Positions 11,507 to 55,768 of a stretch of DNA of 64,000 bases are shown here, piece after piece. Below the pieces are notes generated by a model, which worked only from the letters and a program-made list of their open reading frames with translations, searched no databases and had not been told where the DNA came from. The position numbers and the translations under genes were made by a program. This DNA comes from Macrostomum lignano (Eukaryota), in NCBI GenBank assembly GCA_002269645.1, contig NIVC01001867.1, positions 124,001-188,000 of the forward strand, written 5' to 3'. Each line of letters begins with the position of its first letter. The first letter of the stretch is position 1.

Positions 11507-11508
11507 AT

Positions 11509-15394: not shown

Positions 15395-15414
15395 TAGGAA
15401 GCGGACTTCTTCTG

Positions 15415-15426
15415 AGAGGGGAAAAG
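15415..15426 (+). promoter_or_regulatory. Polypurine tract
   Basis: GAGGGGAAAAG-type purine run directly before the 3' LTR TG. Confidence 0.85.
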
Positions 15427-15605
15427 TGTCATGACTTATGGGGTGGGGCCGCGTGGTAGGGGTGGAGCTTGTTTAGTAAGCCTAGCTAGCAGTACGTACG
15501 GTAATGTACATGCGCGGGCCACCGTGCCCCTTGGCCTATAAAATATACAGAGCGTGGAGGGTTTTGCCTCAACTGAGTTTACTCCAGAATAAGCGAATTG
15601 ACTTC
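15427..15605 (+). repeat. 3' LTR, main part (last 6 bp ATTACA displaced to 34772-34777)
   Basis: Matches 5' LTR up to GACTTC, where Polinton-A begins. Confidence 0.97.
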
Positions 15606-15885
15606 AGTAGTAGGGAAAAAGACGCTTCCAGACCCAGAGCACTTTTTTAACAGCCGTTTTAAGGGTCTAGAGGGGGGACACGGGGGGTAAATAAAAAAAC
15701 ACATCTAAACACCCTTAACACATCTAATCACCCATAATCACCCACAACACCCCTTAATACCAAAAATCAATATAACCCATCCCCAACTCATCTTATCACA
15801 CCCCTCGTGTCCCCCCTCTGGAACCTTATAAACGACCATTAAAAAAGGTCTGATCTAGAAGCGTCTTTTTCCCTACTACTACTCT
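15606..15885 (+). repeat. Polinton-A left TIR
   Basis: Reverse complement of 34486-34765; further partial similarity to ~15920 with a ~65-bp deletion on the left. Confidence 0.95.
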
Positions 15886-15937
15886 ATAACCCCTTGCCCG
15901 CGCCGCAGGCGCGAAGGGTCTTTTTCTGTTACTAAAA

Positions 15938-16252
15938 ATGACCCGAGTTTACACCTTTTCTGTTAGTGATACTTTTGAGACTGTTGCTAAAAATGCAGAG
16001 ATAATAAAACAACATATTTTGAATGGAATAATTGATGAAGTTTATTTAAAATATGACGACAAGCATGACCTAAAGCTTTATCCATTAGAGCTAGATGAGA
16101 TGTATGATTTAGAACAAGAGGGTGAGTTAATATTTCAACTTGGAGATTATTTAAATTCGGATGATTGGGAGGTTAGATCAACAGATTCCGAATCAACAAA
16201 TAGTTCATATGAAACCAGTGATTCAGAGAATGAAAGTGAAATTTTTATGTGA
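15938..16252 (+). CDS. Polinton-A small acidic protein (104 aa)
   Basis: Near-identical to 57607-57921 in element B. Confidence 0.8.
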   Translation: MTRVYTFSVSDTFETVAKNAEIIKQHILNGIIDEVYLKYDDKHDLKLYPLELDEMYDLEQEGELIFQLGDYLNSDDWEVRSTDSESTNSSYETSDSENESEIFM

Positions 16253-16268
16253 AAAAAATATTTAAAAA

Positions 16269-16523
16269 ATGAACTATTATTCTATAACAGAAACGACGTT
16301 TATTATGAAAAATATATATAAAAAAATGAAGGTAAATCGAACCCATGGTTCGCGTGCTTTGCACGATTATTCCTACATCGGAAATGTTCCAATTAATGAA
16401 CTTAATGAAAATTTAAGTTTGATAACAGTTGAACAAATGTCAATAATAATATTAGTAACAATAATAGTAATAATATTGTTTTTGTTTGTAATAAAAAAAT
16501 TACTACCATGTTGTCTTAAGTAA
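16269..16523 (+). CDS. Polinton-A small C-terminal TM protein (84 aa, includes a 10-aa hairpin-element insertion)
   Basis: Hydrophobic IIILVTIIVIILFLFVI; 74-aa homolog at 57367-57591. Confidence 0.8.
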   Translation: MNYYSITETTFIMKNIYKKMKVNRTHGSRALHDYSYIGNVPINELNENLSLITVEQMSIIILVTIIVIILFLFVIKKLLPCCLK

Positions 16524-16533
16524 CTGTTCGAAC

Positions 16534-18136
16534 TTAGTTCGCTGATATTAGTTGGTTCTCATAAAACGAACCCAATATTTCTTCACCGTCCTTATCAGCA
16601 ATTATATAGGTTGTAGGATTGGTATTTAAAACTTTACTGATAGTAAATTTCTCACTTATCTTCCAATATCCTTTTCTTCCTTTTTCAAACTTATCTTTCC
16701 ATTTATAGATATAAACAGAATCACCAACCTTAAAAGATTTCTTTTTATTTTTTTCAAATTTTCCAAAAGTAACTTTAACTTTTTCAGGATTGTTATAAGC
16801 TTGTTGAGGAGTCATCTTTATAGCTGAATGATATGAATTGTTATAATCTTTCACTACGTCTGGTAATATTTTTACCCACTTTTGGTTACCATTAAGACTA
16901 AACTGAAACCATAATTTCTTACCTAAAGTTCGATTAAATCTTTCTATTAATGCGTTTTTACTCTCTCCATAAATAGAATAAATTTTATTAATATACTCCC
17001 CATTCGCGTCTTTTTTCCTTTCTTTTCCTTTTTCAAAATGATACAATTTATACATATGAGGATTGTAAAATTCTTTTCCTTCATCAACACACAATCTTTC
17101 GCTTTTTTCTCCAAGACTTCTAAAAGCAGCAGCAACCTCCTCTCCCTTTTTGGATTTTAAAGGAACAGCCCACGCGTATCGAGTAAAACCATCTAATATG
17201 GTTAAGATATATTTATATCCTCTTTCGTTCGGCATCGACATTAAATCAGCATACCAAATTTCATTCTTTTTGAAGTTCATGATTTTTCTATAAAATTTAG
17301 GTTTTCGATATTCTTTATGAAGAATCTTTGCCTCATCAGAACTTAACCCACCACCACTTAATAATAAACACTCGACACAATTATTTCCATGTTGATTATA
17401 ATTAATTCCCAAACCAAATTTAACTTTAGACTGCAAAATCTTTTTAACCATCCACCTAGTTAATCTTTGCCCTACCGATAATCCCTGCAAGTTATCTAAT
17501 CCTTGAATCATTTTTTGATCGGCTTCATGTTTTAATCTTAATGCTTCCTCGGGCGGGTTCTTGTCAGCATCTCTATATGCTAAGTCGTGATAGTATGCTA
17601 ACCAATCAATCCCATTTATTGGAATTGAATCAGATTTTGGAGTATTGTCAGGATTTAATCGGAGATCGAGTCGAGTCAACCCGGCCTTTATACCTTTGCT
17701 TTCACAAAGGAGTAGACTGTGTCTTAAGCTATCATAAGGATTGACTAAGTCCTTCAAGCCCACCAGCGTACAGTCGTTGCATCTCAACCATACTCAAGTC
17801 ATATGAGGTTAGGTTTTCGATTCACTCTTGCCCATATATTTATCTTCAAGCTTGTTACCGTTGGGAAGAGGAGTTACCTCTGTTCCTTTGTAATCTTTCG
17901 AAAACAAAGTGGTACTTGAAGCTTTAGGGGATTGAGTGAGCGGCTGGTGTTGCCACTAATAGTGACTAGCAGTAGCTTTGCATCTACCACTCGGGCACAG
18001 CTCGAGCTCCACCCGCGAAGTTGTAAGATGGGATGTGTAATTCATTTGTATACCTCCCAGTAGTAAAGATTGGTGGTAAGCTTGTTAATCCTTTTTGAAC
18101 ATCTAACAATCCTCCTTCAAACACAAGTTGGTTCAT
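16534..18136 (-). CDS. PLA2 (parvovirus VP1u-like)-DDE integrase fusion, split by a group I intron (exon 1 18136-18011, exon 2 17684-16534); 2 extra nt at start of exon 2 in this copy
   Basis: Exon 1 MNQLVFEGG...ELHIPSYNFAG joins PG(T)RLDLRL...YYHDLAY; integrase motifs WYADL, VDEGKEF, IERFNRTL; C-terminal FKVGDSV domain. Confidence 0.85.
17685..18010 (-). ncRNA. Group I intron (326 nt, ORF-less), element A
   Basis: 5' exon ends in U, intron ends in G; P1 CGGGU/GCCCG with U-G at splice site; P3 CACCAGC/GCUGGUG; P4 UCACUC/GAGUGA; P7 GACUG/CAGUC; P5abc-like extension with GGUAACAAGC bulge; GAAA-capped P9. Confidence 0.85.
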
Positions 18137-18620
18137 TTTTAATGTTTAAAAAACATGTTTCTATCAATTTAATAATTTCTAAATATTGATCACCATATAA
18201 AAAATTTAAAGCAAATTCCCCAGTTAACAAGGTAACTCCATTATCAAATACTTTTTGTACGGGGTTTTTAGTAGTATTATTAATGCAAATATAATATAAA
18301 TCAAATTCGGGATTAACATATTTAAATTCTAATAACTTTTGAATATTTCTAAATCGACTTGATGAATTATCTGTGTTATCAGAAGATTTTAACTCTAACG
18401 CAACTTTTCTTTCTGTATGAATTAAATCAATTTTATTTACTTTTTCAAAACCAAAATGTTTAATAGCTAATAATTCATAAAGAGATCCAAGTCTCATTTG
18501 TATTGTTTTAATATGGTTTGCAATTATTAATTCATCTTGAAATATTTTATTTAGTATTCTGTCAGAACCAACTTTATCACAAATAGGCTTACAAAGGTGG
18601 TCTTTTATTGTTTCATCCAT
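18117..18620 (-). CDS. PD-(D/E)XK restriction-endonuclease-like protein (Eco47II-like), element-A specific
   Basis: GSLYE...KIDL...LELKSSDNTDNSSS resembles the E...D-X-E-x-K core; absent from element B. Confidence 0.6.
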   Translation of the reverse strand: MDETIKDHLCKPICDKVGSDRILNKIFQDELIIANHIKTIQMRLGSLYELLAIKHFGFEKVNKIDLIHTERKVALELKSSDNTDNSSSRFRNIQKLLEFKYVNPEFDLYYICINNTTKNPVQKVFDNGVTLLTGEFALNFLYGDQYLEIIKLIETCFLNIKNEPTCV

Positions 18621-18647
18621 TTTATAAAAAATAAATTTAACAATTAA

Positions 18648-19319
18648 TTAAACACCAGTATGTCCAGCAGCTTTCGCAGCAGCTAAAACAAGTTTTCTAG
18701 GAGTTTTAAATCCTTCTCCAACAGCTGGTTTGTTATTTATAGAATTAACAATCCTTTTATACAAGCTGGTATTTTTAGCAGCTCTTACTCCCAACTCATC
18801 ATAAAAAATTTTTGCACTTACTAATTCATCCCTAGTATATAATTCAGGGTTAAATTTTACCCTAGGGTTCATAACAATATTATATGCTCCGCCCAATTCT
18901 CTATATAGTTCATTTCGATTTTTATCAACTCCACCAATTCGATAATTATTATTACCTAAATCTGTCACAGCAATACTAGTTGGTGCAGCTCTCGGATATT
19001 CATCAACTCCACCCCTTTCTGCAGCCCTAATCTCTGCAACTCTCAATTGAGCTTGATCAACATCATAAGCTGGCGGCTCATCCAAAATTTCATCCTCTTT
19101 TGGCTCCGTATTTTTAGCAATTTTTTCCAGAAGATCTTTATCTGTTTTTTCTAGTTCACTAATTTTCCCAGTAATAGGATTAACAAAAGGAGCAGCAAAT
19201 CTTTCACCCGCTAATTGTATTCCTAACTTTCTTTTTTGTAAATTTCTAACAAAATCAGAATATCTTTGCTTCTCTTTATAAATCGCTAACTCTCCATCAA
19301 CGTCCATAAATTGACTCAT
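18648..19319 (-). CDS. Conserved Polinton uncharacterised protein (223 aa)
   Basis: Homolog at 54455-55141; divergently transcribed from MCP. Confidence 0.8.
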   Translation of the reverse strand: MSQFMDVDGELAIYKEKQRYSDFVRNLQKRKLGIQLAGERFAAPFVNPITGKISELEKTDKDLLEKIAKNTEPKEDEILDEPPAYDVDQAQLRVAEIRAAERGGVDEYPRAAPTSIAVTDLGNNNYRIGGVDKNRNELYRELGGAYNIVMNPRVKFNPELYTRDELVSAKIFYDELGVRAAKNTSLYKRIVNSINNKPAVGEGFKTPRKLVLAAAKAAGHTGV

Positions 19320-19353
19320 TTTTTAACATAAAAAACTTTTTTAACTTAAAAAA

Positions 19354-20825
19354 ATGGCTGAAACAAAAACTATGTGGAGTGATAAATTTCATTTCAAAAA
19401 GCACCGACAGTATATTAATGAGGTCAGAGCAAGAGATTTAAATTATACCCTACCAACAAGTGATAATTCAAATAACTTTACTACTGGAACGGTAACTTTT
19501 GACATCGGCGCAACCAACACTATATTGGATATGAAAAATGCGTTTTTCCGCGTTAGATGGTTGTATACTAGAAATGATGGAACTGCTCTTGCAGCCGGAG
19601 ATATCGCAGATCGATCCGGAATAATAATAGAAAATGATTGGTTTTATAAATGTTTTTCCCAAGCTCAACTAACTGTTAATGGTGCTGAGGTTGAGACATC
19701 ATCAAACCCCGCAGAGATTAATGGAGTTTTGAAACATTTAAATTATACTTATTTATCAAAACAAGTTGGTGATAATGTTGGGTGGATGCCGGATAAAGGT
19801 AACGGTCAAGCAGTAGTTTTCCCTAATGTACAAAACGCAGCTGGTGCAGATACTGCAGCTCTAATTGCTTACCTTAATACAAACATAGTTCCAGTTGTAA
19901 CCACTATGACTAATACAAAAGATATTAATACTGGTTTTATAGATCGTCAGAGTAAATTCCCAGTCGCGGTTTTAACCACAGCAACAGCATATGAGCAGGA
20001 CTTTTCAATCTTCCCGCTATTTGGGTTCTTCTCACCAAATCGGGTATGGAAAGGATTAAAATTTGGGATACAGTTGCAAATATCTGGTGGATATCAGCCT
20101 AGGATACTTTATGGAACCTCAATTTCAACCGATATAGCAGTTCGTATAGATTCAATTCAATTAGTCGTACCAACTATTGAGGTAACAGCTCCGCTTTTAA
20201 AACACATCGATAATCAGTTAACGCATGATCAGGAAATATTTTATTTGAATCGTAGACACTTTATGCGAACCATTAATAACAATCAGGATTCATTCCAGTG
20301 GCAAATACTGACATCAAAACGTCGGGTGAGATATATTTTTGTTTGGTTTAAAATAACAAACAGAAGGAGTAAAAGAGCAAATGGGGATTTATATTGGCTT
20401 CAATCGGTGACATAGCAGCACAAGCAGCTACCGCAACAGACAACGCAGTTGCTGCAATTAACGAGTTTAATGTTCAGAATATCCGCCTGCAGGTTGATGA
20501 TCAATATTATCCGGTTAAAGACCCCCTAAATTTAAATATAGCAAATAATAATGTTAATGATTTTATAAAATATTATCAAGATTATGCTAAAAATGAAGCG
20601 TATGCCGTCCCTCAGTACACACCCACAGAGTTTCTAAACATTCATCCAGTGGTTGTTTATGATCTAACGGCACAGAAAGAAAACGTAGCCAATATTGGAC
20701 TTAATTATATGTTAGAGATTAATAAAACCGGTAATCAGGCACTTGACGCCCACGTATTGTTTCTAGAGGAATATATGTCAATTGCTAAAGCTGATGGCAC
20801 GATTGTTCGGGACGCGCCGCTGTAA
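19354..20825 (+). CDS. Major capsid protein (double jelly-roll), frameshift ~20405
   Basis: ~490 aa beta-rich, position before ATPase/penton/protease; element B reads through this junction (QSGDIAAQ). Confidence 0.8.
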
Positions 20826-20876
20826 AATGAGTGCAGGTCTCCGACCGTCGCGCCTATTTAAATTATTTCTTTAAAA

Positions 20877-21676
20877 ATGGTAAAGGCAAAACACGATAAG
20901 ATATTTCCAAATGATCCTTTTCTTTGTTTAGTAATTGGTGGGTCGGGTAAAGGAAAAACACACTTTGTTTACGATTTATTAACAACAGATGGAATGCTAG
21001 ACTATAATAATTTAATAATTTATACTAATAAACCTAGAATAAAATATTATGAATTTCTTAAACATGGATTAAAAAACAAATTAAAAAAAGATGTCTTGTT
21101 TAGAATGTTAAGAGCATATGAGCAATATGAGGATGATGACGAACCGCGATTTAATCTAGCAGACATTGAGGATTTATGTAAAACAATGGCACAACAGCCA
21201 GAAAACATCACCGATCGCCCCGTAGGGTCGCGGACTCCGTCCGATCGCGCCCAACTGTTAGAGTATCAACCCGATTAGCCTATGATCAAATTCCAAAACA
21301 TGATAAAACACTAATTATTTTTGATGATTGTATTAATGACGGTGATCAAGAATTACAAAAGGAAATTTTTGTTAGTGGTAGAGGAGATGGAATCGGAGCT
21401 TTTTATCTAACACAGTCCTTTAGAGAATTAGAATCGATTATAAAAAAGAATGCAAGTTGTTGTGTAATGTTTGATTTAGATAATTATGATTTACAAAATA
21501 TACACGCTAGATTTAATCCCGGGTTGGATGCAAAACCATTTAAAAGTATGTGTAAAAAAATTTGGGATGATAGCCAATACAAACATATTTATATCAATCC
21601 GAGGTTAGAAAGGAAACATAGAATTTTAACAAATTTGATAAAAGAAGATAATGAGGAAGAAGAGGATCGTGCATAG
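20877..21676 (+). CDS. A32/FtsK-like DNA packaging ATPase, frameshift ~21255
   Basis: Walker A GGSGKGKT, Walker B LIIFDD, RGDGIGAFYLTQ; continuous 263-aa homolog in B. Confidence 0.9.
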
Positions 21677-21774
21677 CACGCGTACCTTCGGTACGATCGC
21701 CCCATAGGGTCGCGTAACTTCGGTACGATCGTTCCTTCGGAACGCGGACTTCGTCCGATTCTTCCACTATAAAA

Positions 21775-22560
21775 ATGGCTACAAATTTAGATACTATAAA
21801 ACAATTGGTAGATCGAACTAATTCAAAATTTAGTACAACATTACAGTTTATAATGACAACCAGCGAGCAACGGATTCAATTGCGCGATCCATTACAACTT
21901 GATCAAAGCCTAAGTTATCAAATAGGTTTAATACTATTTTCGGTTTTCAACATGCCTCAATTAATTAATGCAACAAATAATCAATTTAGATATTCTAAAG
22001 ATTCCGGAGCCAATTGGACAACATTTAGCGTTAACCCAGGAGCGTATAGCTATACTGATTTGAATGCTTATATAGAAGGAGAATTAACAACTAATGGTGA
22101 TTGGGTAGCAGGAGCAATTGTTATAGGTGTTGATTTACCGTCTGGCAGATTCACACTATCACTAGGATCCGGATATCAGGTTGATTTCACAATTGCAAAT
22201 TCACTCAGAACCATACTTGGATTTAATTCCCGAATAGTTACCACATCAAGCACCGGTGATACAGTTGGAAATATAGAGGGTGGAGTAAATACAATTAATA
22301 TAACAACCGACATTTCAAACGGTGGTTATATAACAGACGATAACGGAGTTTTGGTTCAACGTGGAATTATTTATTCAATCCCATTTCTTGCTGTTCCAAT
22401 TGGAGAGAAAATGATTGTATCACCTCAAACCCCAATATATTACCCATTAAATCAATATAATGTTCAATCAATTTATATTAGGATTGTAGATGAAAGCGAT
22501 AGATTAATAAGTTTTGGTGGGCAGTCAATAACAGTGATTTTACGTATAAAACAGGTTTAG
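21775..22560 (+). CDS. Minor capsid protein (penton, single jelly-roll)
   Basis: P-L-L...YQIGL..FSVFN...NNQFRY...PGAY pattern typical of Polinton pentons; synteny. Confidence 0.75.
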   Translation: MATNLDTIKQLVDRTNSKFSTTLQFIMTTSEQRIQLRDPLQLDQSLSYQIGLILFSVFNMPQLINATNNQFRYSKDSGANWTTFSVNPGAYSYTDLNAYIEGELTTNGDWVAGAIVIGVDLPSGRFTLSLGSGYQVDFTIANSLRTILGFNSRIVTTSSTGDTVGNIEGGVNTINITTDISNGGYITDDNGVLVQRGIIYSIPFLAVPIGEKMIVSPQTPIYYPLNQYNVQSIYIRIVDESDRLISFGGQSITVILRIKQV

Positions 22561-22570
22561 TACTGTAAAA

Positions 22571-22780
22571 ATGGGTAATCGAACAACATGTTCGCGTGCA
22601 AAGCACGATAATAATAATAATTTAATAAAAAAACAATCAGAAAAAGTTAAAAAAGCTGAAGATAATTACGAACTAGAACTAGCAAAATTAAGGCAGTTAC
22701 AAGCTGATAAAATAAGAAAGGAATTGTTAAAACCCACACCTACGAAACTAACTAAAACCAAGAGTTTTTCAGGAACATAA
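22571..22780 (+). CDS. Small MG-starting coiled-coil protein
   Basis: 57-aa homolog at 51101-51274 (minus). Confidence 0.7.
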   Translation: MGNRTTCSRAKHDNNNNLIKKQSEKVKKAEDNYELELAKLRQLQADKIRKELLKPTPTKLTKTKSFSGT

Positions 22781-22781
22781 A

Positions 22782-23222
22782 ATGACCATGACGTGGGATG
22801 ATTTTAAACAAAGATATGGAACGGACACAACAAGCAATATCGAATTAACAAATTGGGCGAGGCAGTTAAAAATAAAACCATTCAGATGTGTTATGCGAGA
22901 TGAGATCAAAGACTTACCACAATATGGATCTTTCATTGTTAATATTGAAACAACAAAAGAAAACGGTGTTCATTGGTCAGCAGTTTATTCAAAACCAAAA
23001 CTTGTTTATTTTTTTGATTCATACGCGCTTCCTCCGTTACAGGAAATAAAAGATAAATTTAATCATACTAAAAATCGTTTATGTGGAGATCATCACGAAC
23101 AGTTTCAAACCTTTGATAAAAGTTATTGCGGGCAAGCGGCGTTGTATTTTTTATATCGACTTTCGAATGAAGCTCGTGTAAACCACAAAGTATTTAAGAC
23201 TATTTTAGACTCTATAAAATAG
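22782..23222 (+). CDS. Adenain-like cysteine protease
   Basis: GVHW...FFDSY...QTFDKSYCG catalytic H-D-Q-C order. Confidence 0.92.
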   Translation: MTMTWDDFKQRYGTDTTSNIELTNWARQLKIKPFRCVMRDEIKDLPQYGSFIVNIETTKENGVHWSAVYSKPKLVYFFDSYALPPLQEIKDKFNHTKNRLCGDHHEQFQTFDKSYCGQAALYFLYRLSNEARVNHKVFKTILDSIK

Positions 23223-23232
23223 ACAGTAAAAA

Positions 23233-25102
23233 ATGATATTTTCTGGAACACCCTCATGGAACGGAACAACAAGTACTGGTGGTGGTACTCTGGTGGAATA
23301 AGTGTTACCTTCGGAGATAATCGATATATTAATGAAGATGAAGGTTATAAAAAAAGTGAAGTTGATACTAAACTAAATTTGAAACGGAATGTTGCAGATT
23401 CCTATACCAAAACTGAAATCGATACTTCATTAAATCTTAAAAGAGATATTAGCGATTCATATACAAAATCAGAGGTTGACACTGGGTTAAATTTAAAAAG
23501 AGATATAACTGATTCTTATTCTCGAACTGATTCTGATTCGCGTTATGTTCAAGCCACCGCAACCGGAACTTTAGATATGGATAACAATCGAATTATAAAT
23601 GTTGCAATTACAACGAATAACTCGGTAGTTGATAAGAACTATGTCGATAATCAGGTTGGTAGTCGTAACGGCAATATCAATATGAATAATTTTAAATTAA
23701 CAAATTTATTATTTGGAACAGAGGCCACAGACTCGGTCAATTTAGGGCAGGTCAACGCTCGAGCTAATGTAACCGACGCCGATATTTTTGCCACGCCGCT
23801 TACATCAAATACTTCAAATCCAGATGTTGTTCTTACAGCATCCGAAAATACCAACGATGCTTTTCGAGTTGGAGATGGAAGCCTTGCGACACAATGGTCA
23901 CCAAATACCGGAACCACAACCAATATGGAAATTCAATTTGAATTTTTAGGTTATAATCGAAGAATAAATGAATTAAGAATTACAGGCAGCGCAACTATTG
24001 ATATTCCATCGGGATGGTCGGTTCGTGCAAAAAATGTTGCTACCGATGCATGGACGGTATTACGAACGTCGGGATCACCAATTCAAGCAACTTCATTTGC
24101 GTTAACTAATTTAACGGTTAATTTTTGGAAATATTATAGCGTTTTATTCCCAACTGGTGGCACCGCTACACAACCTATCGAGGTTCGTCTAATACAATTA
24201 TTTGAACACCGAGTTGAAATTCAAGATCTTAATTGGCCAAATGAAATACTATCTGCTACCCGCGAGCGTACGTAGATCAGGTAGCAACTCCAACTTCAAA
24301 TGGTAGAATGTCTGCCGGTGATAAAAATAAATTGGATAATATTCCCGCGATTGATGCCGCATTATTCGAGCCAGTAATTTGTAATTGGACTGGATATCAA
24401 AATCCAACAACCGCTGGAGATATATATCCAGTTGGTTCTTTAATTGGCGACGCTTCTTATATCGATTATCAAAATGGAGCTAGAATTACTCGTGAAACTG
24501 GTGGAGTAAGTGGGGCATTACAATTCAATTTCACACATTTTCAAAATATATCTGCGTCTTTCTATTTCCGAGTCGCTAATTCTACAGGAGATGGTGCAGA
24601 TGCGGTTTGGTTTTATGCATATTGTCACGAACGCCCAACAAGTGAAGGTGGGACTGGATTAACAACCGACGCCGGATTGATAGTTTTTGCAAGTGAGTGG
24701 CATGATAAATTTGGCGTTGTATGGAGTAATAAAAAATCAGACGGATCAAGCCGCGCGGATGTTAATACTGACGCAGATCAAACGGTAGATTATGCAAATA
24801 TTGATAACGGCGATTGGCATTTATTTGAAATTAATATTTTAAATCAAAGGGTTTGGTACCGATTACAGTCATACAATGTTGCTGGTGATTCTTTTACCCT
24901 CATTGGACAGAACGTTTTCACATATGATAGTGGAACTTGGGGAACTTTAGATAAATCTGGAACCCTTATGGGTTTTGGTGCTCGAACTGGAGGATCGGAT
25001 GCTGCACATTTTATTCGTGGCGCAGCCGTTTGTGGTAGCACATCGTTTGGTTATGTTTTTCCTTCTACCGCTTATTTAGAAAAACCACCCGTACAAATCT
25101 AA
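23233..25102 (+). pseudogene. Fibre/receptor-binding protein, two frameshifts
   Basis: 19-aa YTKxEVDxxLNLKRxxxDS repeats, discoidin-like middle domain, C-terminal lectin-like domain; continuous 643-aa homolog in B. Confidence 0.75.
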
Positions 25103-25117
25103 ATATTTATATATAAA

Positions 25118-25444
25118 ATGGCTTTTAGTAGAACTCCATCGATGCGGCAAAATAATGTTATTATTCCTATTCCTAAACAAGAATCAAATATAAAAACATT
25201 CAAATCTCATACCAAATTTTTATTTAGTACTGTAAATGTTCAGGATAATAAGAAGCTTCAAGAATTAATTAAGTTATTAAAAAATCATATTATACTTCAA
25301 GAGTTTTGGAAAATAGGATTTAAATGGGAGAAAAAAGAAAGAATCACTCCAATACAATACCTATTGAGCTCGGGACAAATCCCCAAAGAGCGCGGGGAAT
25401 TCATTTTGGTGCTATTAAAAATAGACGAAAATGTCGGTGTCTGA
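25118..25444 (+). CDS. Polinton uncharacterised protein (108 aa)
   Basis: Homolog at 48264-48644. Confidence 0.7.
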   Translation: MAFSRTPSMRQNNVIIPIPKQESNIKTFKSHTKFLFSTVNVQDNKKLQELIKLLKNHIILQEFWKIGFKWEKKERITPIQYLLSSGQIPKERGEFILVLLKIDENVGV

Positions 25445-26084
25445 AGCAGATAAAAGGGAACGTGATCATTTTAACCAACGCAAGGGTCACATGTTGAGTA
25501 ATGTTGATCGAATAAATTATGATTATGATTTATATACTAAAAAAGTAAGAAGAATTTCAAATCATATCAGAAATATGGATTTTTTCAATATTGGATTTGG
25601 AAGCTTATCGATGTTATGTGTAATTGTTTTAGGTATTTTACAATCATTTCCAACTCTTAATTTATCTCAATTATTTTTAGGTATTTCAATTGGCTCAATA
25701 TCAGGTTTTGAATTGATCAGGAACTTATCAATACTTTTAGCAATTAAATTATATCTTAAAAAAAGAAAGGAAAAATATAAATCTTTAAGAGATGTTGCAA
25801 AACAATATAAAAATCAATTATATTTATATGTGCAAAAAATATTGGATGACGGAGAGATAACTATTCATGAATTATCAACCGCGGTTGAGTTATATGAAAA
25901 ATATTTAAAAGATAGAAATAGAATTTTGGATGTTGAAACTTTTACCGATATGGAATTGAAGGAATTGCGTTTGGACAAACCCAAAGCTCCTCCGATAGAA
26001 ACTATTGAATACAAACCGGAAACTATTGCTACCGGGTTACAAAGTCCGCGGTCAGGAAGTACTGTAGAACTTCAGGTTGTTTAG
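25431..26084 (+). CDS. Two-TM membrane protein with conserved LDDGEITIHE helix region
   Basis: Two hydrophobic segments; homolog at 47678-48333. Confidence 0.75.
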   Translation: MSVSEADKRERDHFNQRKGHMLSNVDRINYDYDLYTKKVRRISNHIRNMDFFNIGFGSLSMLCVIVLGILQSFPTLNLSQLFLGISIGSISGFELIRNLSILLAIKLYLKKRKEKYKSLRDVAKQYKNQLYLYVQKILDDGEITIHELSTAVELYEKYLKDRNRILDVETFTDMELKELRLDKPKAPPIETIEYKPETIATGLQSPRSGSTVELQVV

Positions 26085-26559
26085 TTTATTTAATGCATAC
26101 GTTATATATTCTTCCCAAAGTGGTAACTCTCTTGATCCTAGGTTTAAATTTTTTATCAATACATAAAAATTCCAATGACTTTTTCAATAACATTTCGTTA
26201 GGTATGTTACCTATCCTTATAAACTTTGTATTCTCTCGAATAAGAAAATTGAAATAATATCCAACTAAAATTAAAATCCTTTCGGAGTCTTTCGAACTTA
26301 ATCCCTTTCCTTTATTTAAATGGAAAAAGTTATTATATAAATAAACATTATTTCCGGAATTAAAATTGGATCGAAATGTCTCTTGTAAGATTTCTTAAAA
26401 TTGTGTTTTTAAAATAGTAATATGAATTTTCAATCTTTTTTTTTTTTCAAATTGATATATTTTAGAACATGAATAACACATATGATATATATCTCCGTTT
26501 GCTGTTTGCCCTCTGTGCATAGTCACATTACATTTATTACAAACATAAATGTCTTTCAT
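26052..26559 (-). pseudogene. Zn-ribbon protein, frameshifted
   Basis: Nucleotide homology to intact 47198-47710. Confidence 0.65.
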
Positions 26560-26585
26560 TTTTTTGTTATTTTTTTAGATTAAAA

Positions 26586-26918
26586 ATGGAAAGTTGGTTC
26601 AAAACCGATTCTAATGTGATTAATTATCTCACACCCAATATGTTGGAGAATAAAGAATATAATATTATATGTTTGAGACAGGTTAAATTTATTGGACTTC
26701 AATCAATATTTTTACAATTAGATGGGCAAAAAATTTTATGTCTAAGCGGAGATGATGTTAAAAATTTTCCTGTTTTAGTTATTAATAAACCTAAAGCGTT
26801 TGTTATGAAATACTGCAACGAGGGTGGATTGCAATTTAAACTAAAACAAACAAATAATAAAAAGAGTGATAGGACTGTAAAATTGGCGGCTGTTTGGGAG
26901 GATGACGACGAAGACTAA
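26586..26918 (+). CDS. Polinton uncharacterised beta-rich protein with acidic tail (110 aa)
   Basis: Homolog at 46840-47171. Confidence 0.7.
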   Translation: MESWFKTDSNVINYLTPNMLENKEYNIICLRQVKFIGLQSIFLQLDGQKILCLSGDDVKNFPVLVINKPKAFVMKYCNEGGLQFKLKQTNNKKSDRTVKLAAVWEDDDED

Positions 26919-26933
26919 ATTTTTTATAAGAAA

Positions 26934-27308
26934 ATGGATACGATAAAAATCCTTATCACTAAAGAGCGTGAACTTAATGATATTAATAAAAAAATAAATA
27001 TAATTATATCTCAGAAATATCATGAGTATGGGGACGATATGTTTCCCATCCGATATGAATGATAAAAGAAAACGTTTTTTAAACTGCAATTGTTATGCTG
27101 AAACAGTAATTGAAATTGAAATAGATAGATTGGTTAGAAAAATAAAAAAACTTAGGAAAAAAATAAAGGATTGTTTAAGTTACCCTGACGACTGCGAGGA
27201 AAATTGGCCTTCAATATTATATGAAATCGAAATGGATATTATGCTTAAACAATTACATGCTTTAGTTTTTTTCCGCCCGAAGGGTCGCGGATTTTATCCG
27301 ATAAGTAA
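26934..27308 (+). pseudogene. Polinton uncharacterised protein, frameshifted
   Basis: Homology to 46464-46823. Confidence 0.6.
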
Positions 27309-30300
27309 TTTTTCTGTTAATCTCTTCCAGTTATTCAAGACTTTTTCCTTATTTAATTTTTTAAGTTCTTTTGGAAATGTTGAATAATAATTATCTATAT
27401 CTTTTTCATATTCTAGAAATGTATTATATTCACAATCACATTCGGATTCACAATCACAATCGTAATAATAATTATTTATTGCCGCTTTGTATTCATTATA
27501 TTTACTTATTATATCTTCTTTTTGTTTTTTATCTTTTATCATATTTTTTATCTCTTCTTTTAAACCATATGGATATGTTTTAATTTTATCATCTAAATAT
27601 CTTTTATCATCAAATGGACTTAATGTTTTTTTATCTGTCTCGATGACAAACATCTGATGCTTATCTGAATTTAATCGATATTGTGGAGCATGATAATTTT
27701 CAATTGTATTAAGGTAATCTAAAAGTACGTTTTTATAATCATCAAATGTTATCTTTTTTACTGCTGCTCTTGATACCCCTTTTATTTTTTTTACCTCTCC
27801 CTCCTGTCCTAAAACTTAAATGCATAGCATTTTGATCTTATTGCTATAAACTCGGTTATGATTTTGCTATTTAATTCATCTTTCATTTTAAGTACAACTT
27901 TTTTATTTTGATCTGATTTTAAAGGATGGTTATCCGGATAGTCGGAGGTATCCAATGTATCCTTAATTTTTTCCATATCTTTATAGACATCGAACCTTTG
28001 GTTCGCGGCTCCGTCCGTCATCTGTTTCAACCTTAAATACCAAACTGTCGGTGTCTGCATATATTGGATAGTTATCTGGCCATGTTTTATTTATAACATC
28101 ATAATAGTATTCATACATTACTAGCTTTGCATAATCTAAAACAACCATTCCAATAAATATTGGTTTAAGAAATTTTGTTGTTTTATTTCTCATATGAATA
28201 CCCATAAAGTTATCATCAAATTTTATAAAGTCTTTAAAGTTAGGTTTTGAGAAATATTTCTTTGCTTTATCAATATCCTTTTCTAAATGGAATTGGGTTC
28301 TATCTCTAATATTTTCAACCGTTTTTCCATAAAAAGCATTATTCATTAATTTCCAATAATCTTTCTCAAAATTTGTTTTTGACATCTGTCTCTGATTTGA
28401 ATTAAAGTCAATATATTTAGCTAACCAATCTTCCTCAATAAACGATATTGTTCGATGTACTTTAGACACTTTTAATCCCTGTTTTCATAAAATTGTAGAA
28501 GCTTATAATGCACTACATAGTTTTTCTTATCATGTAAATTTAATATTAATTTTTTTGTTGCTAGATGTTTTGCATTATCTGCTTTAAGATAATCTTTTTG
28601 TGTTTGTGATAAATCATCTTCATTAACTGAACAATGCTCTGGAGCTAAAGGATATTTATATGTTTTTGCTTTTGCTTCCCGAGTATATTGCAAATCCACT
28701 TCTACGATACAGCCCCTTCCTTCGGGAATATTTTTGTAATAATCGGGGTCATCTTCCCATTGGAAATCAGCTATTGGTAATTTTTGTTTCATACAACCAC
28801 CGTATAAATTGTTTGCATCTAGATATAATACATATGATGATTTTTCTTTTTTATTATAATTTGGTAGATATTTATTATTTACTTTAGTATATCTATCTCC
28901 TAGTACACCCGAGAATCCGCCGCGAATTCCTCTCTCAATCATTAACAACATATCATGATCAGTTAGTAAATCAATCTTAACATCTGTGTATTTCAAACCA
29001 CAAGCCCATGTTAATCCGGTGCACTGAAACAATATGCGGGATCAATTTTAAAATTCTCATATGTATGATTCCTAAAGTTTTCAAATGCATCAGCTAATAG
29101 GAGAACATCTGCTTTAAGATATAGATTATGATAATCTTTAAATGTTTTACAATTAAAATATTTCCATACTTTTTGAGCGTGTTCATAATCCGATTCACTT
29201 ATGTTTGTTTGTGATAATGTTGAATAAAACTTTTCAATTGGGGGTAATTCGGTATGAAAAATACGTCTTCAGATGTTACATATTCATATGGGTAGATGCC
29301 CTTACGAGTTAATAGCATTAGTTCTTCCTCGGATAGTTTTTCTTTTTGAAACGATTCAATAAGATTGGAAAGTTTTTCTTTACTATTTCTAAATCCCATG
29401 GTTTTGGAACTAATGATGAAACAACATTTGCTAAAGATGTTGATAAGAATCTCAAGGAATCTAGAAAAACTAGATGGGAGTATTTCTTACCATATGTTAT
29501 TGATATGTAATTTTCTGATGTTTTAGGTAATATATTTATTTCATATTCATCCTTTCCTAAATGAAGCAATTCTCGAACTAGAAATGAAAATCATATCCGG
29601 AACCATTATGAAAAAATACTGGTATTTCCTTACATCCTTTTCCTTCTTTTGCGTTACATGATCTACATGCTGCCCCTCGATAAATTCCCGTTAGATGACA
29701 ATGTTCTCGTATCTTATTTTTCTTACTTAAATATCTTTTGCACATATAACAATTTGTTGCATTTTTATAATTGTCTCTATCCTTATCTGTCATAATAATA
29801 TTTTTTGATAATTTATCATATTGATTTTGAATATATTCAAATACATTTACTAATGATTCTGCCATGTGCTTAGCTGCATCATTACCGTGGTAAGTAATCA
29901 TCCTTGATTTAAATATATGATCAGCTACGGAGTGTACATATATACAATAACTATTAGGAAACTGTTGTGCTAATTTTTTTGTGCATTCACCATCAGATAC
30001 TGTCTGTGATTCTTTTAAGGGAACATTTGTTGCTTCAAAATCAGCATATATTACTATTGGTTTTTTAATTGCCATATAATGTTGTTGGAACATTAGGGTT
30101 GCATCTTCAGATGCTGGCATTACAGCATTAGTAAATTTGTGATCTAAACAAAATCGTTGATGATTTTTAAGAGCTGTTTCATCCTTTTTAAATGTGAAAC
30201 AATTTCTACATAGTGGATATCTATTTCTATTTTCTCTTAAAAAGAACTAATGTCCTTTATGTATATATAATGTGTTTCATTTTCACGCTGCATGTACAAA

Positions 30301-31219
30301 AGGTCGATTTGATCTGGTGCTGTTATATCTGTTGCTGGCTTAACAAGATAACACCTTTTCTTATACCATTCTGGATTGGTTGAAATTTCTTCTAGATCTT
30401 TTGGTTCTTCAATTGTAAACACATTAATATTTAAACCATTCATTTTTTCAATCTTATATATATCATCTATTGCTACTGGGTATGATATGTTTTTCATTAT
30501 TATTTCATCTCATATTGTTATAATTATATATTTTATTAGTGTGTGATTCTACTTGATTGTGATATTTATGAATTAATAAACACCATAATAAACATTTATT
30601 ATCTTTATTGTTGGATTTATGATCATTGGTGATTTAAATTTGAGCTTCATATGTGATCGTCCTTTAAGAATTTCTATGGGTGCAATCTTTACTATTGCTG
30701 AATTACAGGATACAAATATAAACCCGATCCGTTTTCTGTCATCTTATCTATCCATTCATCAAACTCAGCTTCTATTTGATTAAATTGATTATTGTAATTT
30801 CCCATTGATAGTAGTGTTTTATATGATTCTTGTGAAAAGTTATTTATTACTTCAATTTCTGAATTTGCATTAAGAATATTTGGTTTTTTAAATTCTGTTT
30901 CAACTTCTATTTTATACTTAATTGGCTGTCGTTTGTTATTTGGCCTTATAGTATAATTGTTTAATATGGTCTTTAATTTATCTTTCATTTGTTTAAAATA
31001 TTCTTTATAATTTGTATTTATATCTATATCTATACCTATTACTTCAGCTCCATTTTGTCCTTGTGGTTGGGGGTTATCAATATCATTTAATTGTCTTTCT
31101 AAACGTATCTCATTTTCTGCCCTAACTCTAGCTTCTATATTAGCTCTTTCTAATTCCAATTGAGCTATTAATTGCGCTCTAAGTTCAGGGTTGTCGATTT
31201 GAGCTAAAATTGCTTCCAT
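27294..31219 (-). pseudogene. Protein-primed DNA polymerase B, multiple frameshifts
   Basis: Fragments 30692-31219, 30237-30497, 29578-30120, 29318-29569, 28472-29032, 27981-28469, 27294-27653 match the intact copy in B. Confidence 0.92.
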
Positions 31220-31303
31220 TTTATAGAATAAAATTTATATAATGTTTGAATTATTGATTTTTTAATTTTGTGTTTTTGGTGTCCAGACCCTCCCCCCAGG
31301 AGC

Positions 31304-32263
31304 CTATTCGAGATCTGCTTTTGGTAATAGCAATCCGTTTCCCATAACGTTTGAATTTAAGAAAATTCCTGAACCTGCTTTTGGTCGCATTTCGAGATAT
31401 AATCCGCTTCCATCATGTTTTTCAATGATGTTAAAATCTTTTCCTAACTTATTAAAAATTTTCTGAACAGCTGGTCTAAAATTGGATCCAATATTGTCAA
31501 AAAATCCTTTAGCTTTCTCACCCGTTTTTTCTAAAGTTTGGCCAAATTCGTGTAGTTTATCTGCGACAACTCCACTTCCTTGGGTCGTTCCTTTTAAAAT
31601 TAAACCTTTTCCAGCTGCTAATTTAGCTTCTGCATTTCTTTTTTGCTCTGCTGTTGCTGAACTACTATTAATGGTATCTATAAGTTTTTGTTTGAATTGT
31701 GCGTCCTGTGTTATTTGCTGTCTTTGAAATTCGGCCTCTCTTTTGGCTTTTTCATCCGCGGCTTTTTTGTCATTTACTGCTTTTGCAATTCCAGCCGCTC
31801 CTCCAGCGACTCCTCCAGCTGCTCCAATTCCTGCAAAAATTATTGGGAGCAAAGTTGCGAGGGGTAATATACCCCCTTCTTTTGCTTTTAATTCTCCTAA
31901 CTGTTTTATGTTATCATGAATTCTTTTTCCTGCTAAACCAGCTGCTCCAGCTGCCCCAAGTCCTAAAAGAATTGGTAAAATGGGTAACAACCCGCCGTCC
32001 TTTTTAGTGTGAGTCTCCAATAAAAATTTTACATCGGAGTCTGTCAGCCTATAATTTCTACCATGATTCTTAAAGGATATTGGTCTTCCTTCTTGTGCAT
32101 ATTTCGCAGCAAGTTTAAATGTATTGATGTCGTAGTCAAATTTTTTGCCTAAGCGATCCAATCTTTTTAACATTGCGTGACTATGTTTATTATCGTCTAG
32201 ATTTAAAGTATCTACAATTTCTCCTATAAAATATAGCCGTTTTTCGTCATTAACTGAGTCCAT
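31304..32263 (-). CDS. Core/virion precursor with adenovirus pX-like GG-ILP motifs (319 aa)
   Basis: EGGILPLATLLPIIFAGIGAAGG resembles adenoviral pX MRGGILPLLIPLIAAAIGA; homolog at 41511-42485. Confidence 0.65.
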   Translation of the reverse strand: MDSVNDEKRLYFIGEIVDTLNLDDNKHSHAMLKRLDRLGKKFDYDINTFKLAAKYAQEGRPISFKNHGRNYRLTDSDVKFLLETHTKKDGGLLPILPILLGLGAAGAAGLAGKRIHDNIKQLGELKAKEGGILPLATLLPIIFAGIGAAGGVAGGAAGIAKAVNDKKAADEKAKREAEFQRQQITQDAQFKQKLIDTINSSSATAEQKRNAEAKLAAGKGLILKGTTQGSGVVADKLHEFGQTLEKTGEKAKGFFDNIGSNFRPAVQKIFNKLGKDFNIIEKHDGSGLYLEMRPKAGSGIFLNSNVMGNGLLLPKADLE

Positions 32264-32273
32264 TTTTATATTG

Positions 32274-32684
32274 TTAAAATTTCTTTAATCCTTTTCCGCC
32301 TTTAATTGTGGTTAACATTTTATTAAAATCCTGAATATCTTTATTACTTATTGGTGTGCTTTTCGTGGGGGTTTCTGTTGGTTGTGCGGCTTGAGTTGTT
32401 TCCTGCGCTAGTTTCAAATCTTTTATTGCTTTTATTTGTGAGAGGGTGTCGTTAAATTCTCTCAATTTCTTTAGTTCTTCTACTGCCCTCGCTGCTTCGA
32501 TTCCGCCCTTTACAGCGTTTGTTATAGAACCTGCTGCAGAGCCTGCTTGGCCTATAAGACCCATATTGTCTTTAACGAAATTCGCTGCTGTACCAACCAC
32601 ATCAAAAAGACCCTCACCTCGGTATTCAACTGGGTCTCCTACCTGCAATTCGTTCAGATTTTGCATATGTGTAACGTGTGTCAT
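32274..32684 (-). CDS. Virion precursor with amphipathic segment (GEG-LFDVVGTAANFVKD)
   Basis: Homolog at 41102-41500. Confidence 0.7.
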   Translation of the reverse strand: MTHVTHMQNLNELQVGDPVEYRGEGLFDVVGTAANFVKDNMGLIGQAGSAAGSITNAVKGGIEAARAVEELKKLREFNDTLSQIKAIKDLKLAQETTQAAQPTETPTKSTPISNKDIQDFNKMLTTIKGGKGLKKF

Positions 32685-33127
32685 TTTTTGTTCTATTTTT
32701 AGTAACAGAAAAATTAAGTTGCAGACACTAAAGAAAAGGGTAGTGTGCAAGCATCTCGAGCGGTTTTATTTTATAGCTCTTTTTTACTCTTTTTTGTATA
32801 GAAAATAAAGAAGACGCAAACACAAAAGATTCTCTATCCAAAAATGAACCTATGGTTCGCGGGCTGTGCCCGATGGCACAAATGGCCTGCTCCGCTGGAG
32901 CACAATGGACGCTTTTTATTCGATGAATGGCCATTTTTCTCTCTGTCCTCGGTGCATTGTGTCTATAACAGCACATGAATTTTTCTCATAGCTTAGAAAA
33001 AATCATGTATACACTAAAAGAGTTTGGTGCACACACACACATGATTTTTTCTAAGCTATGAGAAAAATTCATGTATACACTAAAAAGATTGTCAGTTTAA
33101 TAGTTATGGAAATAGCACGCAAATTAT

Positions 33128-34014
33128 TTACTTCTTAACCCATTTTCCTCCTTCGAACATCTCTCGGACTTCGGCGGCGCTCTCAGCTTTGTCTTCCGCG
33201 TCAGGATCTTCGTTGAAAGCTACAATATAAAAGCAAGCTTTAAAAAATATGAACTTACTTACATTACCACAATAGTGAAGCAATCACTTACTGTCTTCAT
33301 ACCACTGGTGAACTTGCTTTTCTTCAGGACTGCCATCTTTCAAAACCAAAGCAACTGTCTCGTGTTGCATCTTGAGAAGTTCCTTAAACCTGGCATCGTT
33401 TTTGCCTTCTTGCAAATCGCAGCACTATAATTAATTACTATGCCCATTGAATAGGTAGAAAAAATTAAACCCGGGTATTCAAGGCAGAGTTGATAGTATT
33501 TGTTATAATCCTCAACCTTCCGGCTGGTTATGTTGAATGAGTCGGCCAGCTCTCGCTCTGTCATTCGATACTTCGTGCTTAAATAGTAGATAAGTCTACC
33601 CTGCTCAAATTGCATCATTGCCTTAGCAATCGATAGAGCTTCAATAGATGACTTTATTTTCTTAAATCTTTCAATCAAATCATGTTTGGTCGTACCTTCA
33701 AGCTTGAGACCAACGTGGGATAGGCCTTGTGTAATCGCTTCCACGCACACACTAACTCCTCTATCTTCGTTCTCCTCTAACTTCTGATAGATTGTCTCTA
33801 GCACATTCTCCACATAACCTTTCTCTTTCCTCTTTTGGGTGGTCGGCTTCTTTTCACTCACCCCATCCAACTTTTCTAAACTATCATGTAAGGCCTCCAA
33901 TTCCTTCTCCGAGAAGTCTTTAAGTCGGCAACCAATTAATGACTTATCCTTCCTTGATAAATTCGTAGCAATCTCGACAATAGATGATATCCTTGCTTCT
34001 TTCGATGATGCCAT
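33128..34014 (-). CDS. Element-A-specific cargo gene with spliceosomal intron (33291-33220) and an HTH-like region; one apparent frameshift ~33395
   Basis: 224-aa ORF; donor gtaagt and acceptor ttgtag give ...QWYED/TFNEDPDAEDKAESAAEVREMFEGGKWVKK*; MTERELADSFNITSRKVEDY is HTH-like. Confidence 0.6.
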
Positions 34015-34485
34015 GATAATACGTTTGTTAGTTCTTGTAAAAGACAGATATTAGGAGTTGTGCATAAATAAGAGACTATTTGCTGTGGCTAGTTTTTTAG
34101 ATTTCATCATTCTTATACACACAATTAAAGCTTGGGGTGGAGTGCTGAAAATAATAAAAGCGCTTTTCATGAGTAAGCAACTCACCTTCCTGTTGTAGCC
34201 AGTTTGAGTCTGAGGTTTGCGCTTCGGTAAATGATGAGTATAATAGAAACCCCGAATTCCCGCGTTAGTCATTATACTGTCTGCGACCCTTTGGGGTGAT
34301 CATGCAAAGTTTTTCTTTTTGTGAGCTGCTTTAAGATAGTTAAACACTGTTCCTTTTCTATGACTCAGTTTGGGTCAGACTGTGCCCCTTCGCGCCTGCG
34401 GCGCGTGCGAGGGTTTATAGAGAATTTGAAGTGTTAGAAGTGTTGGGGTGTGTTGGAAGTGTTGGAAGTGTTGGAAGTGTTGGGT

Positions 34486-34765
34486 AGAGTAGTAGTAGGG
34501 AAAAAGACGCTTCTAGATCAGACCTTTTTTAATGGTCGTTTATAAGGTTCCAGAGGGGGGACACGAGGGGTGTGATAAGATGAGTTGGGGATGGGTTATA
34601 TTGATTTTTGGTATTAAGGGGTGTTGTGGGTGATTATGGGTGATTAGATGTGTTAAGGGTGTTTAGATGTGTTTTTTTATTTACCCCCCGTGTCCCCCCT
34701 CTAGACCCTTAAAACGGCTGTTAAAAAAGTGCTCTGGGTCTGGAAGCGTCTTTTTCCCTACTACT
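34486..34765 (-). repeat. Polinton-A right TIR
   Basis: Inverted copy of 15606-15885. Confidence 0.95.
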
Positions 34766-55168: not shown

Positions 55169-55768
55169 ATGGAAACTAAAAAGATTTGTAGTCGATGTAA
55201 AGAAGAGAAACCAATGACTAAAGATTTTTTTAGATGGAGAAATGATTCAAAAAAATTTAGAAATGATTGTCGATCTTGTGAGAAAGTTATATCAAAACTG
55301 TGGAATAAAAACAATAAAGAATATATAAAAAATAAATATCACACTGATGAAAATTACAAACTTATTATCACCTCACGAAATAGAATAAATCAACTATTAA
55401 AATCAAATAATGCTCGAAAAAATAATCATACTATTGATTACCTTGGTTGCTCAATTGAATTCTTTATTGATTGGTTAAATTTCACAAAACATTATTATGT
55501 TCCAAAAGACTATGGTGGTGCTTTACATATTGATCATTTTATTCCTGCTTCTTCATTTAATTACAAAGACGAAGATCATATGAAAAAGTCTGAACATTGG
55601 ACAAATAAAAGATACTTAGCTGCTATTGATAATAAAACTAAATTTGTTAAACAACCAACAATTGAAGAATTTGCAAAACAATTGGTGCTATCATGTATTT
55701 TTAAGGCTATAAAAAATGAGCAATCATGCGACGCATGCGAACCGAAGGTTCGACCAATTAGTATTTGA
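55169..55768 (+). CDS. HNH/His-Me-finger endonuclease-like protein with N-terminal Zn finger, element-B specific
   Basis: CSRC...CRSC; YLGCS...LHIDHFIPASSF...HWTNKRYL...N resembles HNH nucleases common in large DNA viruses; absent from A. Confidence 0.75.
   Translation: METKKICSRCKEEKPMTKDFFRWRNDSKKFRNDCRSCEKVISKLWNKNNKEYIKNKYHTDENYKLIITSRNRINQLLKSNNARKNNHTIDYLGCSIEFFIDWLNFTKHYYVPKDYGGALHIDHFIPASSFNYKDEDHMKKSEHWTNKRYLAAIDNKTKFVKQPTIEEFAKQLVLSCIFKAIKNEQSCDACEPKVRPISI

Follow-up and report, generated by a model that had tools for sequence, protein, structure and literature searches.

Why do two group I introns with unlike catalytic cores occupy the same site in two copies of one mobile element in an animal genome? 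The question is raised by a 64-kb window of Macrostomum lignano, the whole stretch of DNA that was analyzed, which holds two mutually inverted Polinton copies, A and B. Animal group I introns are mostly mitochondrial IB4 introns of placozoans, corals, and sponges according to the accessible text of a study with a 42,459-intron database (PMC11835236), and the nuclear IC1/group I introns treated in the available parts of PMC8395846 are reported only from the rDNA of protists and fungi. For PLVs, the available sections of PMC12220804 report group I introns from a few protists only (cryptophyte, rhizarian, and chlorophyte), and the adintovirus paper, as far as its text was accessible, describes PLA2 genes without such introns (PMC8502044). 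The introns described here were unexpected because animal group I introns have been reported only from mitochondria. The literature searches turned up no description of such introns in the Polintons of animals, most subscription journals and bioRxiv supplements lying outside the reach of the search. The introns offer natural material on three questions: whether ribozymes trade domains as modules outside the laboratory, how a mobile intron comes into being when a free-standing nuclease and an ORF-less intron are combined (the stages before and after both occur here), and whether group I splicing works in animal nuclear pre-mRNA.

The elements were designated Polinton/Maverick on the basis of terminal inverted repeats, a 6-bp target duplication, an integrase, a capsid protein, and a packaging ATPase, the ATPase match being that of the homolog in copy B. 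The target-site duplication of copy A lies at 15600-15605 and 34766-34771, and several genes of this copy are split. A 1,302-amino-acid ORF at 42570-46478, whose only Pfam match is Endonuclease VII, is likely the polymerase, which in a Polinton would be a protein-primed DNA polymerase B. The Endonuclease VII (HNH-type) domain covers its residues 487 to 538; the pPolB2 proteins of nematodes and oomycetes have an HNH insert according to 10.1101/2023.08.22.554363. Another Polinton ORF (48660-50591), in a region that is more divergent between the two copies, contains tandem repeats of 57 nt and encodes an F5/8 type C domain. Directly left of Polinton A is a Gypsy-type retrotransposon (11322-15609) with 183-nt repeats, and the Polinton may have inserted into its right LTR.

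Introns A and B both follow the same Gly codon, in a loop of a parvovirus-type PLA2 domain that is fused to the integrase (Table 1). The position of the junction was set by a natural intron-less allele (L112) and by database homologs. If exon 1 is left unspliced it forms a 50-amino-acid ORF (window 17984-18136) with its stop inside the intron. One guess is that the intron-bearing "proteins" of about 50 amino acids of cryptophyte PLVs, which appear in the accessible portion of PMC12220804, are first exons of this sort. Exon 2 has an internal ATG at 17511 that opens a 325-amino-acid integrase ORF.

Table 1. Positions of the introns, their parts, and neighboring genes in the 64-kb window
Feature	Position	Strand	Remarks
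Polinton/Maverick copy A	15606..34765	.	Terminal inverted repeats and 6-bp target-site duplication; integrase and double-jelly-roll matches
Exon 2, PLA2-like/integrase gene	16534..17684	-	Remaining PLA2-like domain and integrase
A-linked exon 2 start	17661..17684	-	Second copy of the five guide-pairing bases; fixed 2-nt frame offset; synonymous codons complementary to intron 5' end
Group I intron A	17685..18010	-	326 nt; from Rfam, fold, and helix pairing; terminal G most likely 17685
P9 hairpin, intron A	17693..17710	-	GNRA loop; no P9.1 or P9.2 after it
A-specific core, 3' half	17714..17827	-	P4', P6/P6a/b, J6/7, P7 with G-binding pair, P3', P8, J8/7, P7'
P5abc, intron A	17843..17923	-	71 of 81 positions identical to B; two haplotypes among A copies
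A-specific core, 5' half	17934..17949	-	P3, J3/4, P4
P2 and P2.1, intron A	17952..17990	-	P2.1 is the place of the nuclease ORF in type C
Internal guide sequence, intron A	17992..17996	-	3' strand of P1
Exon 1, PLA2-like/integrase gene	18011..18136	-	Ends in the Gly codon whose U makes the P1 wobble; homologs with PF08398
Free-standing PD-(D/E)XK nuclease gene	18117..18620	-	167 aa; Eco47II/EcoO109I-like; overlaps exon 1 start; candidate homing/competition nuclease
Free-standing zinc-finger and HNH-motif gene	55169..55768	+	199 aa; copy B; slot taken by the PD-(D/E)XK gene in copy A
Group I intron B	55875..56177	+	303 nt; IC1-like core; same site in Polinton copy B

A first-pass annotation made from the letters alone had proposed a second group I intron at the site of intron B, with helices that differ in sequence but keep their pairing. 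The coordinates, the homologous codon, an Rfam RF00028 match of 42.9 bits (E 1.4e-9), and a fold better than 100 of 100 shuffles (z -3.2) bear this out for intron A. Intron B scored 65.9 bits and introns of a third type, C, up to 91 bits; with its score below the 50-bit cut-off, A is not a member of RF00028 at the curated threshold. The folding result for B was weaker (z -1.75, with 4 of 100 shuffles equally good). P1 (5/5), P3 (7/7), P4 (6/6), and P7 (5/5) are fully paired in both introns. A hand count over 27 core pairs, comprising P1, P3, P4, P6, P7, and the pair closing the G-site, found 13 pairs changed on both sides between A and B, 2 changed on one side, 12 the same, and none broken. 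For the 13 double changes (6/16)^13 comes to about 3e-6, but every one of them falls on the same single branch. Intron A also has a paired P8, a U-G wobble at the 5' splice site, a G-binding G-C pair with a bulge in P7, and a terminal G, which was found in 24 of 24 A copies. These results demonstrate that the A interval is a group I intron, one whose core belongs to a second lineage and whose insertion site is that of B. Splicing would be expected to follow the two usual steps, in which the guide pairs with the exon end through the U-G wobble and a free G binds P7. It is hardly credible that A is the degenerate remnant of an intron or a product of misassembly. Its score below the Rfam cut-off and the split genes of copy A could be taken in that sense, but 24 copies have 95 to 100% core identity with pairing kept, and a contig from an independent run (X5 record 20) spans exon, intron, and exon with 2 differences.

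The count of 24 places in the genome for the A core comes from a search in which all 25 candidates were scored. The number of B copies is a lower bound, with 40 of 198 candidates scored in the B searches. An Rfam scan (28 scored) led to type C (L061-L088), which is found at this site as well, but in a Polinton subfamily further removed from that of A and B. Of 104 loci, 4 were set aside as duplicates and 5 could not be parsed; the 95 typed loci comprised 24 A, 46 B, 23 C, and 2 C-like introns, and some of them are probably haplotype duplicates. Twenty further regions yielded 19 B introns, the remaining one having missed the site. More than 110 intron-bearing loci lie in the Polintons of this animal nuclear genome. 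The genome is that of an animal, as indicated by 86 Wnt matches compared with none in 14 prokaryote controls, and two contigs (C506 and C67) have Wnt exons together with B- or C-type introns. Among 14 matches to the junction pattern, 2 PLA2 genes were intron-less, one (L112) in the same subfamily and the other (L104) more distant. The same intron family is present in other public assemblies (ENA, Logan, and JGI), where database proteins start or end in translated intron (P0007, P0043, P0126-P0129, P0131, P0133, and P0137). P0007 and P0126 come from one 4,853-nt contig, which is perhaps one C-like locus. No relatives were found in metagenome or viral contigs in searches by protein and by P5abc pattern.

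Several individual copies have peculiarities of their own. Introns ending in A account for 29 of the 46 typed B introns, mostly before one particular Pro codon (for example, L035, L038-L041, and L220-L230), and for most of the 19 further B loci. To our knowledge the terminal G of group I introns is universal, and the literature search found no paper on terminal-A group I introns. One A intron (L024:1889-2719) has an insertion of about 830 nt in P8 that, by eye, has TG...CA ends, short inverted termini, and a 4-bp duplication; it looks like a solo LTR. Small double-hairpin repeats, possibly tiny mobile palindromes, lie between Polinton genes (window 21214, 21728, 27271, 32843, 50621, and 57039) and are also inserted in the P5, P5c, and P6 loops of C and some B introns (L077, L078, and L145).

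The first-pass annotation had further suggested that A may be a mosaic with the core of another subgroup. Three tertiary signatures differ together between A and the B and C introns: J3/4 with the second pair of P6, the second pair of P4 with the first J6/7 base, and the G-site closing pair with the bulge. The first two are base triples of the Michel-Westhof model. Covariation of the bulge with the G-site closing pair is described in the accessible text of PMC8395846. Intron A has the P2, P2.1, and P5abc elements of subgroup IC1, but its core lacks the combinations that mark IC1, namely an A bulge together with G/C as the pair closing the G-site, and a G-C second pair of P4 together with a U in J6/7. 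B and C do have the IC1 combinations at the G-site (as given in the available part of PMC8395846) and at P4 and J6/7 (the triple as generally understood). The assignment to subgroup IE that had been considered is contradicted by P5abc and the single P9. According to the portions of the sources available, IE introns have an unexpanded P5 (PMC3112068) and an expanded P9 with P9.1, P9.2, and P13 (PMC6274462, PMC3112068). A has a P5 domain of 106 nt, a single P9 hairpin 8 nt from its end, and no P9.1 or P13, and was rejected as an IE member.

A scan of viral contigs with A's own J6/7-P7 motif returned 64 loci, whose likeness to A is therefore partly by construction. Twelve of the 13 viral loci submitted to Rfam had a group I match over the cut-off, which for L165, L181, and L187 was to another intron in the locus. 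Two viral introns (L159 and L165) agree with A at all three tertiary signatures. The P5 domains of the A-like viral introns are 101 to 133 nt long, P6a of A has an 11-nt stretch in common with L181/L196, and its shorter P3-J3/4 junction matches the same viral class as the three signatures. Over 35 unselected core columns, identity to A by hand count was 18 for L159 and 16 for L165, compared with 14 and 15 for B/C, which makes A only slightly nearer to the viral pair; 6 of 12 viral rows were dropped as mis-registered (L197, L156, L166, L207, L209, and L168). Viral introns L217 and L171 have mixed signatures, with a B-like J3/4-P6 and an A-like G-site. In IMG/VR, group I introns interrupt the capsid and RNA polymerase genes of many viral contigs (L155-L218), and a single locus often has several. 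Judged by these motifs, intron A appears to work as an IC1-scaffold ribozyme with a giant-virus-type core. The alternative tertiary code that it has in common with giant-virus introns suggests that its core was most likely derived from that intron pool.

It could instead be proposed that the A core diverged long ago within the Polinton intron family by stepwise compensatory change, with no viral import and exchange of the periphery alone. We regard this as rather unlikely. The identical insertion site, P2.1, and P5abc would fit such a history, as would the resemblance of P8 in A to P8 in C, the occurrence of A's P5 helix with IC1 cores in database relatives (P0129 and P0137 read-through), the mixed signatures of L217 and L171, and the poor separation given by unselected core identity. 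However, three tertiary signatures and the shorter P3-J3/4 junction all fit one viral class, the P6a stretch is common to L181, and none of the 95 typed loci has an intermediate core.

The near identity of P5abc in A and B that had been pointed out was confirmed, with the differences located in P5b. Each core type was found with each P5c haplotype: A with haplotype 1 (18 copies), A with haplotype 2 (6), B with haplotype 1 (44), and B with haplotype 2 (2). Eighteen A introns share P5c with most B introns, and the other 6 have the P5b and P5c that are seen in C and in 2 B introns. Furthermore, the P2 of A is also found on 11 of the 46 B cores. Modules (P2 and P5b/c) are exchanged between core types. 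The idea of a mosaic with a shared periphery stands in so far as modules are swapped, but the near identity of P5abc can be only partly attributed to swapping, because the domain is conserved family-wide, including in distant relatives known from database proteins whose reading frames continue through it, and because giant-virus introns with A-like cores have it as a native part.

The proposal that ribozyme structure is under selection is supported by variation among the A copies. In 10 distinct A sequences with 84 pairs there were 5 double changes, 5 single changes that keep the pair, and 4 breaks, and the core was almost invariant. Four of these double changes go with P5b/c haplotype 2; the one in P5 is A's own. 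As for core covariation between A and B, it amounts to one contrast between two lineages and not to many covariation events. An R-scape analysis of the copies in this genome would therefore have little power in the core.

In a tree of the integrase region (70 rows), A and B copies are scattered, with 12 to 13 changes of type, at least 7 of them forced by well-supported branches. Linkage between SNPs falls from an r2 of 0.29 to about 0.1 within 25 to 50 nt throughout the integrase region (59 distinct rows). Frequent gene conversion among Polinton copies would homogenize the parts that can be aligned (P2, P2.1, P5abc, and the exons) while the unalike cores stay distinct. The cores persist as blocks, probably because unalike cores cannot align.

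New here is a restriction-enzyme-like nuclease gene just upstream of intron A, with a 67%-identical homolog inside C and an HNH-type alternative in the same slot. The first-pass annotation had noted neither the adjacent and intronic nuclease genes nor intron type C. The 167-amino-acid protein beside A matched Pfam RE_Eco47II with E 1e-3, which is below the cut-off, and its intronic homolog matched with E 4.6e-7, which is over it. An alignment-based AF2 model had a pLDDT of 89.8 (36 for a single-sequence fold), and Foldseek matched the model to EcoO109I (TM 0.61) and AvaII. This modeling indicates a type II restriction-enzyme fold. For the 199-amino-acid protein beside B there was no Pfam match and a single weak PDB match (Hpy99I, E 0.45). 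H123, N146, and N155 are invariant in 25 aligned homologs, and the nearest named family in the Atlas is HNH (0.88), itself a lead only. On these motifs the protein is a putative HNH nuclease. In type C, the homolog of A's nuclease lies within P2.1 in 23 of 23 typed copies, and this Eco47II-like ORF (for example, L065:1092-1778) sits in the P2.1 loop and continues in frame into the core. For both nucleases there are database homologs that likewise extend into the same intron core, in 6 of 9 cases for PD-(D/E)XK and in 1 of 24 aligned for the HNH-like protein (P0137), which implies that both are intron-encoded elsewhere.

The idea that each intron type has its own nuclease was considered and rejected, as the types are freely mixed: 7 A introns adjoin PD-(D/E)XK and 17 HNH-like genes, the corresponding numbers for B are 4 and 42, and 18 more PD-(D/E)XK genes are with B. 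A nuclease gene beside an ORF-less intron, together with intron-less alleles in the same genome, is the layout predicted for collaborative homing, and its presence suggests that the nucleases promote homing. A nuclease beside the intron, or inside it in type C, would cut intron-less alleles and so spread the intron in cis. Homing endonuclease genes (HEGs) and trans-homing have been proposed for giant viruses and PLVs in the accessible text of PMC5871332, PMC11296320, and 10.64898/2026.10.13.758929.

A quite improbable alternative is that the nucleases are unconnected with the site of the introns and serve general competition or restriction between elements, the introns spreading by background gene conversion and drift only. 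Examination for co-conversion revealed a short A-linked tract, but linkage is equally short across the integrase region, so that neither this tract nor the scatter in the tree requires homing. When hypervariability of the target site was looked for, no excess of silent diversity was found at the insertion site. The free mixing of nuclease and intron types, and the HNH-like gene that is still present upstream of intron-less L112, would also be expected under this alternative. However, both nuclease families occur inside this intron and otherwise about 110 nt upstream of the site, and intron-less PLA2 alleles number 2 among 14 pattern matches, compared with more than 110 intron-bearing loci.

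The 3' junction of intron A presents a further problem. The first-pass annotation had noticed 2 extra nt at 17678-17679 that break the spliced frame, and had asked whether they might be a read or assembly problem. The offset is real: it is fixed in 24 of 24 A copies and is also present in the contig from the independent run, and assembly error was rejected as its source. The terminal G would be set by P9.0; P9-to-end spacing and a swapped P9.0 pair match viral introns L156, L166, and L206 as read directly. Splicing at 17685 puts exon 2 out of frame by 2 nt, with an immediate stop. If splicing is canonical, no fusion of PLA2 and integrase would be made from A copies, which would depend on other copies or on the integrase start inside exon 2. 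The PLA2 exon pieces are open in 23 of 24 A copies, with 26 silent and 5 replacing variants, and in both A and B types the pieces are open and variation is mostly silent. Open PLA2 exons are odd for a dead domain, but exon exchange with B could explain them. Contigs of the runs X1, X5, X6 (guessed to be RNA), and X16 on 16400-19400, which show presence only, had no exon-exon joint; the only joint they have close to the intron, at 17660-17843, comes from a B-type core that is still unspliced.

It is possible, if unlikely, that the origin and mosaicism of A are as proposed above but that the 3' junction is processed in a noncanonical way that yields an in-frame mRNA, either at a nearby alternative 3' splice site or by a second cut-and-join by the same ribozyme at the repeated guide-pairing site, after the manner of trans excision-splicing. 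This would account for the fixed offset and for the second guide-pairing site, which follows the intron in all 24 A copies but in none of the 46 B copies. The exon-2 codons of A form a duplex of -14.6 kcal/mol with the first 10 nt of the intron, compared with -4.4 to -10.5 for 18 natural B/C variants, and neither of the two variants inside the A-linked tract changes an amino acid. Three group I ribozymes have been shown in vitro to excise a single nucleotide by trans excision-splicing (PMC2532722). However, the duplex is weak against controls: equal stability is reached by 1.3% of the windows taken from Polintons (14,752) and by 6% of those matched for GC (2,881). P9.0 and the P9 spacing point to 17685, homologs retain the Gly-x-x-Thr spacing, and the A-type codons are found without the offset after one B intron (L219). 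We know of no natural case of trans excision-splicing.

The explanation that we prefer, in which our confidence is about evenly balanced, is that A is a group I ribozyme of a second lineage with a core from the viral pool and a periphery homogenized by conversion, that it is spread by nuclease-driven collaborative homing, and that its copies make no PLA2-integrase fusion. Built on the observed structure and module exchange, this explanation extends by inference to splicing, homing, and the origin of the core. A more sweeping reading, which we doubt as a whole, would have active mobile ribozymes in protein-coding transcripts of animal nuclear Polintons, two core lineages that compete for one site and trade peripheral domains, homing driven by restriction-enzyme-like and HNH nucleases, natural second processing of the offset, and splicing of most B copies with a terminal A. 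If it were true, it would mean natural chimeric ribozymes and both free-standing and intron-encoded nuclease stages in one genome.

Like the nuclear IC1 introns of the Tetrahymena type, A has P2, P2.1, a P5abc with an A-rich bulge, and a tetraloop-receptor-like P6a. The IC1 core is matched by B and C, whereas A has another G-site combination and other triple partners. With subgroup IE (the Didymium DiGIR2 type) A has in common a G-site and J6/7 unlike those of IC1, but it differs in having P5abc and a single P9 hairpin in place of the unexpanded P5 and expanded P9 described in the available portions of PMC3112068 and PMC6274462. Giant-virus introns (IMG/VR L159, L165, L181/L196, and L187) have A-like signatures, P5 helix, P5abc-sized domain, and P8/P9 layout. 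Giant viruses also have, as the Polintons do, ORF-less introns beside nuclease-bearing ones (compare Bodo saltans virus in the accessible part of PMC5871332). Their introns differ in being in other host genes, in having a P5abc that is only about 60% alike, and in belonging to cytoplasmic viruses of protists.

The PLV introns of protists are RF00028 introns of 309 to 376 nt inside PLV genes with many copies per host genome, as here, but those in the available text of PMC12220804 lie upstream of the capsid gene, in contrast to the PLA2-like/integrase gene of an animal host. The Polintons furthermore have three intron types at one site, with nuclease genes adjacent or intronic. The collaborative homing of phages, as reviewed in the accessible part of PMC3984707, likewise pairs an ORF-less intron with an adjoining free-standing nuclease, and the next step predicted for it, a nuclease inside the intron, exists in the same genome here. 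Unlike the phage case, the setting is a eukaryotic provirus, the nuclease resembles a type II restriction enzyme, and nucleases and introns occur in mixed pairs.
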